Below, one piece after another: positions 5,111 through 7,970 of a DNA stretch of 24,000 bases. Below the pieces are notes generated by a model. That model did no database searches and was not told the origin of the DNA. It worked only from the letters and a program-made list of their open reading frames with translations. Location: NCBI RefSeq assembly GCF_001679005.1, contig NZ_LXTW01000003.1, positions 190,802 to 214,801 on the forward strand, read 5' to 3'. Source of the stretch: Moraxella nonliquefaciens (GTDB lineage Bacteria; Pseudomonadota; Gammaproteobacteria; Pseudomonadales; Moraxellaceae). The translations under genes and the position numbers were made by a program. Within the stretch, counting starts at the first letter, position 1, and each line of letters opens with the position of its first letter.

Positions 5111-5138
5111 GTGAATGACTGTAAAAATATGCTAAAAT
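5111..5138 (+). promoter_or_regulatory. Putative extended -10 promoter for the LRR/HKD-J operon
   Basis: TGCTAAAAT (5130-5138) is an extended -10 (TGn + TAAAAT). A weak -35-like GTGAAT sits at 5111-5116. AAGGA Shine-Dalgarno lies 8 nt before the ATG at 5166. Confidence 0.35.
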
Positions 5139-5165
5139 ATCAATATTAACTTTAAGGACAATCCC

Positions 5166-6575
5166 ATGACCCACGAACTTATCCCTACCCAAACAGGGCT
5201 AACCCTACGCCGTACCGACACGCTGATAAACATTACCAATAAACTGCTCGCCCAAACAGGCATCAAAGGCATTAGCCAGATGAGCGATGATGAGCTGTGG
5301 GAATGGTGGCTTTCGCTTGATGATGAATGGCGGTTTTTATTTTTAAGACAAGGGCTGGAATTGGCGTTATGGATAGATGACGATTGGTATTTTGATGAAA
5401 ATTTTGATTATCAAGTGGGTTTTGATTGGTTCGATAAAGAATTAACTTTTGTGTATGTTAAGGCAATACAGAATTTAACTCGTCTTGATTTATTGGAAAA
5501 CCAAATCCAAGACATTTCGGTATTGGCGAATTTAACTAATTTAACCGAGCTTAATTTATGGGAAAACCAAATCCAAGACATTTCGGTATTGGCAAATTTA
5601 ACCAATTTAACCAGTCTTGATTTACATCATAACGAAATCCAAGATATTTCGGTATTGGCGAATTTAACCAATTTAACCAGTCTTGATTTACATCATAACC
5701 AAATTCAAGATATTTCGGTATTGGCGAATTTAACCAATTTAACCGAGCTTAATTTATGGGATAACCAAATTCAAGATATTTCGGTATTGGCGAATTTAAC
5801 CAATTTAACCGAGCTTAATTTATGGGATAACCAAATTCAAGATATTTCGGTATTGGCGAATTTAACCAATTTAACCAGTCTTAATTTAGGGGATAACAAA
5901 ATCCAAGATATTTCATCATTGGCGAATTTAACTAATTTAACTAGTCTTGGTTTACCATATAACCAAAATAACCAAATCCAAGATATTTCTGTTTTGGTGA
6001 ATTTAACTAATTTAACCAGTCTTAAGTTATGGAATAACCAAATCCAAGATATTTCTGTTTTGGTGAATTTAACCAATTTAACCAGTCTTTATTTACAATA
6101 TACCCAAATCCAAGACATTTCAGCATTGGCGAATTTAACCAATTTAACCAGTCTTGATTTATATCTTAACCAAATCAAAGACATTTCGGTATTGGCGAAT
6201 TTAACCAATTTAACCAAGCTTTATTTATTGGATAACAAAATTCAAGATATTTCGGCATTGGCGAATTTAACCAATTTAACTGGTCTTGTTTTATGGGATA
6301 ACCAAATTCAAGATATTTCGGTATTGGCGAATTTAACCAATTTAACCAATTTAACCAGTCTTAATTTATATCGTAACAAAATTCAAGATATTTCGGCATT
6401 GGCGAATTTAACCAATTTAACCAGTCTTGCTTTATGGAATAACCAAATTCAAGATATTTCTGTTTTGGCAAGCCTAATAAAATTAGAACATCTTTATTTA
6501 TCAGAAAACCCAATCAATCCCCAAGATATAGAATGGCTACAACAAAAACTTCCAAATTGTAAAATTATATTTTGA
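5166..6575 (+). CDS. Leucine-rich repeat protein (about 16 SDS22/internalin-like 22-residue LRRs), no signal peptide
   Basis: 469 aa. After a ~110-aa acidic, Trp-rich N-terminal region (EWWLSLDDEWRFLF..DDDWYFDENFDY) come tandem units with consensus NQIQDISVLANLTNLTSLxLxx. The C-terminal cap ends NPINPQDIEWLQQKLPNCKIIF. There is no N-terminal hydrophobic signal or lipobox. Confidence 0.85.
   Translation: MTHELIPTQTGLTLRRTDTLINITNKLLAQTGIKGISQMSDDELWEWWLSLDDEWRFLFLRQGLELALWIDDDWYFDENFDYQVGFDWFDKELTFVYVKAIQNLTRLDLLENQIQDISVLANLTNLTELNLWENQIQDISVLANLTNLTSLDLHHNEIQDISVLANLTNLTSLDLHHNQIQDISVLANLTNLTELNLWDNQIQDISVLANLTNLTELNLWDNQIQDISVLANLTNLTSLNLGDNKIQDISSLANLTNLTSLGLPYNQNNQIQDISVLVNLTNLTSLKLWNNQIQDISVLVNLTNLTSLYLQYTQIQDISALANLTNLTSLDLYLNQIKDISVLANLTNLTKLYLLDNKIQDISALANLTNLTGLVLWDNQIQDISVLANLTNLTNLTSLNLYRNKIQDISALANLTNLTSLALWNNQIQDISVLASLIKLEHLYLSENPINPQDIEWLQQKLPNCKIIF
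5499..6509 (+). repeat. 66-bp in-frame tandem repeat array (about 15 units) encoding the LRRs
   Basis: Units are near-identical at DNA level. 5697-5762 and 5763-5828 are 100% identical 66-mers. Two units are 75 bp because of 9-bp slippage: aaccaaaat/aaccaaatc near 5960, and three rather than two copies of aatttaacc at 6330-6356. Confidence 0.92.
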
Positions 6576-6585
6576 GAAATAAAAA

Positions 6586-7959
6586 ATGCAAACCCAAGCC
6601 CTTTTTGACAACATCCCAAGCCATATCATCAATGAATTAAACCAAGCCATGCACAGTATTTATATTGCGGTGGCGTGGTTTACACGCACGGATATTTTTG
6701 AAGTGTTATTACAAAAAGCCAAAGCAGGCGTTACGGTACAGCTTGCCCTATCTAATGACCGTATCAACCGCACCGCTCCAATCCGCCATGATGAGCTGTC
6801 AGCAGTTGCCAACCGCCATACCCACTGGATAGGGGACGGCAATAAGCGGTTAATGCACCATAAATTCTGCGTGATTGACAATCAAACAGTGATTACAGGG
6901 TCATTTAATTGGAGCAAAAAAGCCGAAACGAGCAATCATGAAAACATCACAATCAGTCAAGATGAACTGTTGGCAAAGGCGTTTTGTCAAGAATTTTATA
7001 AGATTATTGGCAAGCCCATGCCAAGCGATGAAAAGCCATTGCCGATTGCTCAGATTATGAAACGCATGGAGATTTTAAAAAATTATGTCATCTTGGAGGA
7101 TTTGGACGACATTAGCCGTGAAAATCAAAAATTACAACAATTTGACAGCGAGCAGGACATTAGCGAGATTTATCACGCCATTAAAAAAATGCAGTTTAGC
7201 CATGCCATTGGACTGATTGATGATTTTATCAAAAAATATCATACGATTGCGGTTTATGCTGATGCTGATATTATGGCGTTAAAATTGGAAATTCGGCTAT
7301 TAGAACATGAAATTAATTTATACGACAGCGAAAAGGCGGAATTAGAAAAATTGCTTGCCGATTTTAATCATCAGCACAGCATGAATTTGGGCGATTTAAT
7401 CAGTGAAATTTTATCTTTACGAAAACAGCTTGCCAAACAGCAAGGCGACCAAAATGCCTATGATGAAGCCAAACAAGACGAGCAAACATTTAATGAGCAG
7501 TTGGATAAAGAAAAAGCCAGAACGCATTATAGACTAAATGCCGATGAACAAAAACTCCTAAAACAAGCCTACCGCAAAGCCAGTCAAATATGCCACCCCG
7601 ACCGTGTCAATGATGAACAAAAGGACATGGCAATGGCGGTGTTTAATGAATTGCGACAAGCGTATGAACAAAACGATTTAAAAACAGTGGAGCGGATACT
7701 TGATGATTTGCAAAAAGGGATATTTAAAGCTCGCTCGGAGACCGTCAGCCAAAACGATAAATTAAAACTCATCAAAACCCAATTATCCCAAAAACTGGAT
7801 AATCTTAAAGTTATCATTGATGAGATTAAGGCAAGCCAAAGCCATCAAGTGGTAAGCAGTATTGATGATTGGCAAGAGTATTTTGATAATCAAAAAATAG
7901 AGCTGATAAGGGAGCGAGACAAGCTAAGAGAGCTGATAAAAAACACGGACGCAAAGTAG
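6586..7959 (+). CDS. Fusion protein: N-terminal single-HKD PLD/Nuc-like domain, central coiled-coil, C-terminal J (DnaJ-like) domain
   Basis: 457 aa. The HKD motif HHKFCVIDNQTVITGSFNWS (aa 91-110, nt 6856-6915) fits HxK(x)4D(x)6GSxN. Aa ~150-310 are heptad-rich and charged. The J-domain helix II-HPD-helix III is LLKQAYRKASQICHPDRV...AVFNELRQAYEQNDL, with HPD at nt 7594-7602. It starts 10 nt after the LRR gene stop. Confidence 0.8.
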   Translation: MQTQALFDNIPSHIINELNQAMHSIYIAVAWFTRTDIFEVLLQKAKAGVTVQLALSNDRINRTAPIRHDELSAVANRHTHWIGDGNKRLMHHKFCVIDNQTVITGSFNWSKKAETSNHENITISQDELLAKAFCQEFYKIIGKPMPSDEKPLPIAQIMKRMEILKNYVILEDLDDISRENQKLQQFDSEQDISEIYHAIKKMQFSHAIGLIDDFIKKYHTIAVYADADIMALKLEIRLLEHEINLYDSEKAELEKLLADFNHQHSMNLGDLISEILSLRKQLAKQQGDQNAYDEAKQDEQTFNEQLDKEKARTHYRLNADEQKLLKQAYRKASQICHPDRVNDEQKDMAMAVFNELRQAYEQNDLKTVERILDDLQKGIFKARSETVSQNDKLKLIKTQLSQKLDNLKVIIDEIKASQSHQVVSSIDDWQEYFDNQKIELIRERDKLRELIKNTDAK

Positions 7960-7970
7960 CACAAATACCC

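Follow-up and report, generated by a model that had tools for sequence, protein, structure and literature searches.

A leader-tagged leucine-rich repeat protein and an HKD nuclease-type J-domain protein of Moraxella nonliquefaciens: an unnamed two-gene accessory module with a likely role in defence

A stretch of 24,000 nucleotides from Moraxella nonliquefaciens (contig NZ_LXTW01000003.1; hereafter the window, to which bare coordinates refer) carries, between recG and an operon of the resistance-nodulation-division (RND) type, two adjacent genes: gene 1, encoding a leucine-rich repeat (LRR) protein, and gene 2, encoding a protein that joins a phospholipase D (PLD) domain with a single HKD motif to a long helical region and a J domain. 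Our analysis suggests, with moderate confidence, that the pair is a member of a widespread but unnamed two-gene accessory module, most likely serving in defence against phages or mobile DNA. That the two genes form a functional module is very likely, and a defence role, judged from sequence and surroundings, is likely. The two open reading frames (ORFs) are read from the same strand and separated by a spacer of 10 nt (6576-6585), in agreement with the initial annotation, which had described two genes 10 nt apart between recG and the RND operon.

5166-6575, plus strand: gene 1, leader-tagged LRR protein of 469 aa (P0001), ORF
6586-7959, plus strand: gene 2, HKD-nuclease/coiled-coil/J-domain protein of 457 aa (P0002), ORF

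One indication of a module is the constancy of the pairing. Throughout Moraxella, an LRR gene with the same N- and C-terminal signatures lies directly upstream of every full-length gene 2 homologue, in at least four contexts besides the recG/RND site (L004, L006, L007, L008), and three more genomes, from another genus of Moraxellaceae, have the pairing as well. Outside Moraxellaceae, full-length homologues of gene 2 were found in Flavobacteriia, Chitinophagaceae, Rhodoferax, Polaromonas, Methylobacter, Thiodictyon, Vreelandella and others; here the neighbour usually lies downstream, often without similarity to the LRR protein of the window. Reading these neighbour sequences revealed that they share an N-terminal segment of about 40 residues with the core L-x-I-[TA]-N-[KQ]-L-L, which we call the leader. 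A hidden Markov model (HMM) of the leader, built on 22 seed sequences and tested on held-out adjacent ORFs, matched such ORFs in further loci. By this HMM, 24 of the 34 full-length gene 2 loci have a same-strand leader neighbour; a diverged leader is visible by eye in three more (L026, L028, L043), and one locus (L014) is cut by a contig end. Among the roughly 2,200 other ORFs of the surveyed loci, none matched the leader HMM at E<0.1, and where gene 2 matches were partial or confined to the PLD domain a leader neighbour was found in only 2 of 45 loci, both of them fragments of true members. The consensus of 38 distinct leaders reads [LV]xx[AV]xxx[LI]x[IL][TA][NAS][KQR]LLx[DE][IV]. Gene 1 itself is an adjacent, same-strand gene that starts with the leader (E 3e-12), and it is the sole leader-bearing ORF in its genome. 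The proposal that an LRR gene would prove to be the conserved neighbour of gene 2 therefore holds for the pairing, which extends across Moraxella contexts and other phyla, but not for the LRR: what is conserved in the partner is the N-terminal leader, the LRR being one of several interchangeable repeat domains, and the gene order is usually reversed outside Moraxellaceae.

In gene 1 the leader precedes a short cap and a long repeat array:

5166-5288, plus strand: conserved N-terminal leader, residues 1-41, core ...LINITNKLLAQ..., identified by the leader HMM
5286-5468, plus strand: acidic, Trp-rich helical N-cap, residues 41-101, from alignment and AlphaFold2 (AF2) model
5472-6469, plus strand: LRR array with a 66-nt (22-residue) unit, 14.8 copies with 83% matches by Tandem Repeats Finder
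after 6469 to 6575, plus strand: C-terminal cap with LPNC motif

Pfam recognises only LRR families in this protein (LRR_4, E 2e-78; LRR_8, E 2e-41). Its AF2 model (predicted local distance difference test score, pLDDT, 87.7) shows an LRR solenoid at residues 106-444 followed by the C-terminal cap, and places the N-cap helices at residues 41-50, 53-63, 82-87 and 91-101; W47, W48 and W55 within this cap are invariant among the aligned Moraxellaceae partners. Residues 1-32 of the leader have pLDDT values below 50 and are therefore predicted not to fold against the remainder of the protein. LRR copy number differs between species, with partner lengths from about 240 to 470 aa, and in another isolate under the same species label the array is 879 nt shorter and a gap of 35 nt lies near the 5' end of gene 2. 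When the N-terminal 100 residues of the partner served as query in a homology search, three matches came back, all of them LRR proteins; the partner N-terminus diverges too fast for a word-based search.

The range of domains found behind the leader bears out this exchangeability. Leader-LRR partners occur in Moraxellaceae, Methylobacter, one Flavobacteriia metagenome-assembled genome (MAG) and one Chitinophaga MAG, whereas three Bacteroidota loci carry WG_beta_rep repeats behind the leader, and the partner in L034, whose leader the HMM missed, has tetratricopeptide (TPR) repeats. In Burkholderiales and Gammaproteobacteria, the sensor domain of many partners is a Trp-rich repeat of about 30 residues, W-x-W-x2-LS-x-N-x2-LPWS-x-ELIERF-x-D-x-W, which has no Pfam match and is found at the following sites:

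L023:2834-4312
L033:5489-7543
L028:7328-8899
L043:777-2093
L026:6056-6997
C-termini of P0257 and P0230

The last two are gene 2 proteins fused to the very repeat that separate Burkholderiales partners bear, and such fusions constitute a Rosetta-stone link between gene 2 and its partner. Elsewhere the partners have multiplied, with three to four paralogues in tandem in L016 and L017. In one genome (G182; L106:5922-7172), an LRR partner lies upstream of gene 2 and a second gene, of 416 aa, lies downstream; the N-terminus of the latter (...LDKIFKIVNKIL...) resembles a diverged leader, and this may be a two-sensor arrangement.

Gene 2 is composed of the following parts:

6586-7008, plus strand: Nuc-type single-HKD PLD domain, residues 1-141 (PLDc_2, E 4e-23, residues 14-139)
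6856-6909: HKD motif, residues 91-108, H91-x-K93-x4-D98...G105-S106-x-N108
7045-7518, plus strand: helical region, residues 154-311, including an 80-residue helix (204-285), from the AF2 model
7537-7713, plus strand: J domain, residues 318-376 (helices II-IV), from Pfam and profile search
7594-7602, plus strand: HPD, residues 337-339
7753-7959, plus strand: C-terminal helices, residues 390-456, from the AF2 model; the part that persists as a 3' stub elsewhere

Several lines of evidence establish these domain identities. At E<1e-30, gene 2 matches 319 clusters (50% identity). A family profile, made from an alignment of 100 full-length homologues, matched Zucchini, Nuc and NucT in the PDB with E values of 1e-20 to 1e-15; over profile positions 325-368 it also matched upwards of 40 J-domain sequences of known structure, those of DnaJ, auxilin, Sis1 and Sec63 among them, with E values of 1e-6 to 1e-3. 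In the AF2 model (pLDDT 92), residues 1-141 adopt a PLD fold and everything after them is helical; target TM-scores of 0.67-0.77 were obtained with its best Foldseek matches, NucT (6ehi), Nuc (1byr) and Zucchini (4ggk). Within the PLD fold, gene 2 carries the complete Nuc-like motif HxK(x)4D(x)6G(S/T)xN, and in the model helices 319-336 and 343-361 flank the HPD, giving the helix II-HPD-helix III signature of a J domain. In the alignment of 100 homologues, H91, K93, D98, G105, S106, N108 and the HPD are each at least 90% conserved. The initial assignment of an LRR protein followed by a protein with HKD and J domains is thus upheld by Pfam, PDB profiles, Foldseek and AF2 models alike. Named close homologues of gene 2, at 83-86% identity, include those of Moraxella bovis, M. 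equi and M. caprae. Single-HKD PLD proteins work as dimers with one active site, and a J domain with an HPD attracts Hsp70 and sets off ATP hydrolysis by it. Both DnaK and HscA are encoded in this genome; no Hsp70 gene was found beside the full-length gene 2 loci, the sole motif match being in L062, a PLD-only locus.

Which part of gene 2 receives the leader is suggested by a variant that lacks the PLD domain (289 aa, L008) and yet keeps a leader-bearing LRR neighbour. Since this neighbour persists, the leader is more likely to dock on the helical/J part than on the PLD domain. We propose, on the strength of the structural model, that the helical region at residues 154-311 may serve as a scaffold for both dimerisation and partner docking. 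Complex prediction for gene 2 with the first 100 residues of its partner returned 'no answer', with a score of 0.01. At the other end of the protein, some gene 2 relatives have an RNase_T exonuclease or a Lon_C-like domain ahead of the PLD domain, which would fit an exchangeable effector end acting on nucleic acids.

The module is accessory and variable rather than a core housekeeping locus. Its helical/J part was detected in 21 of 301 Moraxellaceae genomes, representing 6 of 21 genera, and a survey of 36 Moraxella relatives yielded six copies with full-length matches (one with an in-frame stop), one pseudogene with multiple stops, 3' stubs and one PLD-less form. In the type strain of M. bovis, CCUG 2133 (L015:6076-7223), gene 2 is broken by several stops, and a pseudogene is also present in genome G258; in M. 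caprae (L002/L013) gene 2 contains one in-frame TGA and is open from residue 27. The LRR gene, for its part, is split into two ORFs in G004 (L003:823-1492). Loss also occurs at the strain level: the strain of sequencing run X21, under the same species label, lacks the pair, with zero reads over 5100-7718 and coverage beginning at 7751.

In three genomes of other Moraxella species (G001, G032 and G002), 3' stubs of 66-73 codons matching gene 2 residues 385-457 adjoin the RND gene, two of them at these positions:

G001:C1:1627756-1627971, gene 2 3' stub
G002:C6:880851-881048, gene 2 3' stub

At the same recG/RND site, G001 and G032 carry a GmrSD-type restriction gene (PADLOC HEC-06, E 1e-223; L093:6783-8516 in G001) and G002 a gene of the PD-(D/E)XK family (L094:4278-5357). 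That these genes adjoin gene 2 stubs is evidence for replacement of the cargo of the site, and the recG/RND junction thus behaves as a hotspot at which defence cargo is exchanged. One database record deserves separate mention. A wastewater contig of 1523 nt filed as an unverified 'Escherichia phage' (OR845880.1; L097) encodes a stretch 29.5% identical to gene 2 residues 251-447, in the helical and J part; it is probably bacterial DNA filed as phage.

Members of the family also sit within defence islands elsewhere, and a total of 138 neighbours were scanned. In Vreelandella vilamensis (L028:3257-11184), for example, the pair is flanked by the PglZ (E 1e-291) and BrxL (E 0) genes in a bacteriophage exclusion (BREX) system, a position known to host accessory defence genes. 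ZorA follows the pair in L043, and ZorB, ZorC and ZorD are also among the scanned neighbours; the L046 pair stands after AbiLi and AbiLii, and that of L047 after a type IIG restriction-modification enzyme. Type I restriction-modification, PD-T4-2 and NsnA genes were likewise found. In addition, 393-aa members of the gene 2 family are enclosed in TerY-P triads of Runella (L053:4491-8628 and L066), in the order protein phosphatase 2C (PP2C), PLD-J gene, TerY von Willebrand factor A (vWA) protein (E 1e-60) and STK_OB kinase (E 2e-46). No leader partner was detected by HMM in these two loci, which represent a second, distinct context of the gene 2 family. In L099, a member fused to RNase_T has a DrmMI-like methylase gene before it and vWA and kinase genes after it. 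The expectation that the pair might sit in variable islands or near defence genes is therefore borne out, both by its accessory distribution and by the many relatives found in defence islands.

A number of observations weigh against a defence role or against parts of it. The first ten scanned neighbours were picked for their defence-like look, and the neighbourhood findings come with no background rate; many loci, those of Methylobacter, Rhodoferax and several Bacteroidota among them, have ordinary metabolic genes around them. In searches of plasmids and phages, no full-length copy of gene 2 was found and matches were limited to the level of the PLD domain. As to the proteins themselves, the Pfam DnaJ score of this single gene 2 protein is barely above threshold (28.0 bits over residues 321-361, the cut-off being 27.8), and not every single-HKD protein is a nuclease, Zucchini having long been named a cardiolipin hydrolase. 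Finally, the leader could act as a chaperone-client segment with no part in immunity.

The last point leads to a dedicated co-chaperone/client pair with no immune function, an explanation we regard as improbable though the most credible of the rivals. The J protein would hand repeat proteins that bear the leader over to DnaK, to be folded, assembled or turned over, and its PLD domain would have some other use, for instance phosphodiester chemistry on nucleotides or lipids, or the anchoring of DNA. The J domain is indeed canonical with a conserved HPD, the leader is conserved yet predicted to be disordered, as a chaperone handle might be, long proteins of near-identical repeats are plausible as difficult clients, and many loci lie among housekeeping genes. 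However, such a pair would not lead one to expect the patchy distribution, the pseudogenes and the strain-level loss, nor the conservation of the catalytic HKD residues and the fusion of extra nuclease- or protease-like domains at the same end. Defence systems recur as neighbours, with insertions inside both BREX and TerY-P, and a fixed client would not be expected to show the diversity and rapid change of the partner domains.

Slightly less probable still is an addiction pair of the toxin/antitoxin kind, in which the repeat protein restrains a toxic HKD nuclease, DnaK assists in antitoxin turnover and no invader is recognised. The two genes form a tight operon, either 10 nt apart or with the stop codon of one overlapping the start codon of the next, the effector is of a nuclease type, and gene 2 has decayed to pseudogenes or stubs in several genomes; judged from N-terminal sequences, toxin/antitoxin genes lie near L030 and L045. 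Against this, the partners, at 220-730 aa, with ligand-binding repeats and tandem paralogues, are larger and more varied than typical antitoxins, and PLD-less versions of gene 2 retain their partner. Moreover, this explanation overlaps with abortive-infection defence and does not exclude a defence role. The possibility raised in the initial annotation that the two proteins are eukaryote-like effectors, which would here be an internalin-like LRR protein and a PLD/J protein that acts on host lipids or Hsp70, both delivered to host cells, finds some encouragement in the likeness of the LRR units to internalin repeats (NCBIfam internalin_A, E 7e-77), in the animal-associated Moraxella among the named close relatives and in the J domains and PLD enzymes found among effectors of intracellular pathogens, but is very unlikely given an internalin_A score of 259 bits, far under the cut-off of 1600, the lack of a signal peptide or hydrophobic segment, neighbours that are defence genes and not secretion systems, and the occurrence of the module in free-living methanotrophs (Methylobacter), purple sulfur bacteria (Thiodictyon), Rhodoferax, Polaromonas and lake or marine Bacteroidota.

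If the module does serve in defence, a mechanism may be sketched in which nuclease activity, physical binding between the two proteins, involvement of DnaK, a trigger and a phenotype are all inferred from sequence. Gene 2 would be both effector and hub: its Nuc-like domain would dimerise and cut nucleic acid, and the HPD of its class-C J domain would recruit cellular DnaK and trigger DnaK's ATPase on the leader or on the whole complex. Gene 1 would be the exchangeable sensor, its disordered leader plugging into the helical part of gene 2 and its hypervariable repeat surface (here about 15 LRRs) binding the trigger and giving specificity. Control of the nuclease by gene 1 as sensor, as was first suggested, would follow from such an arrangement. 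In the uninfected cell, the J domain might keep DnaK cycling on the complex of leader and nuclease so that the nuclease is held off, much as DnaK and DnaJ hold sigma-32 in check. Upon infection, a phage product would bind the repeat domain, or a flood of phage proteins would draw DnaK away, and the nuclease would be released or assembled. Alternatively, DnaK may switch the nuclease on after ligand binding. By analogy, the bacterial immune sensor bNACHT25, which needs the host J protein DnaJ for phage detection (PMC12169576), shows that phage sensing can involve the chaperone machinery.

We tentatively raise the further possibility, in which we place less confidence than in the defence role itself, that the module represents a new class of immune system with a built-in Hsp70 co-chaperone, interchangeable leader-docked sensors and DnaK as its switch. 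If so, chaperone coupling would be a hard-wired principle of prokaryotic immunity and not an isolated case. A role of Hsp70 in infection sensing has so far been raised only indirectly, via the need of bNACHT25 for host DnaJ, and a J domain confirmed inside a defence module would offer a direct genetic handle on it. The combination of a leader with a variable repeat would also be a simple means of swapping sensors on one effector. In practical terms, the leader could be used as a search key, since its HMM finds partners whose repeats have no Pfam model. The module would also provide several hundred protein clusters, at present annotated as 'phospholipase D-like domain-containing protein' or 'nuclease NucT', with a context and a partner. 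Within Moraxella, the recG/RND junction is marked as a site of defence-gene exchange.

The surroundings of the pair in the window are as follows:

3005-5107: recG, upstream flank of the pair
5130-5138, plus strand: putative extended -10 element (TGcTAAAAT) ahead of gene 1, from reading of the sequence
5155-5159: Shine-Dalgarno-like AAGGA ahead of gene 1
7971-7998, plus strand: promoter-like site of the RND operon (TTGACA-16-TACAAT with TG), 11/12 in a consensus scan
7971/8026 (start): RND operon, downstream flank; membrane-fusion gene ending at 9197, pump gene at 9194-12241

The promoter that the initial annotation assigned to the pair is legible as an extended -10 element, and it is plausible that this is a real promoter of gene 1; the element has no good -35, which is why a sigma-70 consensus scan left it unlisted. 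The promoter described for the downstream RND operon was recovered by the scan, and with this site the module is bounded on its right side. Downstream of gene 2, the plus strand yielded no terminator-like site. The pair is AT-richer than its surroundings, as had been noted, with GC contents of 0.33 for the LRR gene and 0.40 for gene 2 against 0.48-0.50 for the flanks. At third positions, the LRR gene (0.33) is the only clear deviant, with gene 2 at 0.43 and the flanks at 0.47-0.60, and the low GC of gene 2 is largely due to its amino-acid composition. The reported lack of signal peptides and transmembrane segments agrees with maximum 19-residue hydropathy values of 0.96 and 1.2 for the two proteins. 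Further downstream, an IS607-like element (12457-14168, minus strand; GC 0.35-0.38) lies between the RND pump gene and ruvB, and encodes a 379-aa OrfB_IS605/TnpB-type protein with a Cas12f-like TNB domain and an overlapping serine resolvase of 197 aa. An ORF of 647 aa (19345-21288, plus strand), 11 kb beyond the J-domain gene, resembles htpG (Hsp90), a likeness judged solely from the N-terminal sequence. We considered htpG as a possible link to the pair and dropped it, since it is not conserved beside the relatives examined and its proximity is probably coincidence.

The remark in the initial annotation that no named system has this composition is in keeping with our searches. The pair is not described in the full-text literature searched for combinations of PLD/HKD, J-domain, LRR, WG repeat, TerY and antiphage, and the Protein Atlas names gene 2-type clusters only 'putative phospholipase D' or 'hypothetical protein'. 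PADLOC gave no match to the LRR protein and recognised gene 2 through its PLD domain only, with domain-level PADLOC/NCBIfam matches to DrmC (E 4e-12), DpdK (E 1e-5) and MkoB (E 7e-4), every one of them scoring under its family cut-off. These three proteins resemble gene 2 in that an HKD domain presumably supplies the nuclease function of a defence system, and differ from it in having no J domain. No DrmA, DrmB, DrmMI, Dpd or MkoA genes were found in the window. The DrmC of DISARM was rejected as an identity for gene 2, with a DrmC_I score of 28.7 bits against a cut-off of 133 and flanks consisting of recG and the RND operon, and so was the MkoB of Mokosh, whose match spans only 77 residues and for which the sole adjacent helicase gene is recG. 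TerY-P systems enclose 393-aa relatives of gene 2 in Runella, whereas the window itself has no TerY, PP2C or kinase genes. Membership of internalin class 1 was also discarded, the profile match covering the repeats only and the N-terminus not being hydrophobic.

The best matches of gene 2 in both sequence and structure, Nuc, NucT and Zucchini, share its fold and the full HxK(x)4D...GSxN motif, and are homodimers with one active site formed from two HKD motifs. Those enzymes, however, stand alone, measure about 150-200 aa and are periplasmic or mitochondrial, whereas gene 2 encodes a cytoplasmic protein of 457 aa with a helical/J tail of 300 residues and an obligate neighbour gene. Class-C J proteins such as DjlA, auxilin and Sec63 likewise carry a J domain with HPD inside a larger protein that chooses the client or the site; none was found with an HKD nuclease domain, and the presumed clients here are the leader-tagged repeat proteins. 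The comparison with NLR-type immunity that was drawn at first does not hold, as neither protein has the defining NACHT/NB-ARC-type NTPase (by Pfam, NCBIfam and PADLOC), and membership of the NLR/STAND group was rejected on this ground. A likeness to bNACHT25 and other STAND systems nevertheless lies in the combination of a repeat-type sensor with a nuclease effector. Yet bNACHT25 borrows a J protein of its host, while in the pair described here the J domain is built in, and sensor and effector would be separate polypeptides joined by the leader. Compared with known defence pairs of sensor and nuclease, what sets this module apart is the built-in J domain and the set of leader-tagged, interchangeable sensors.

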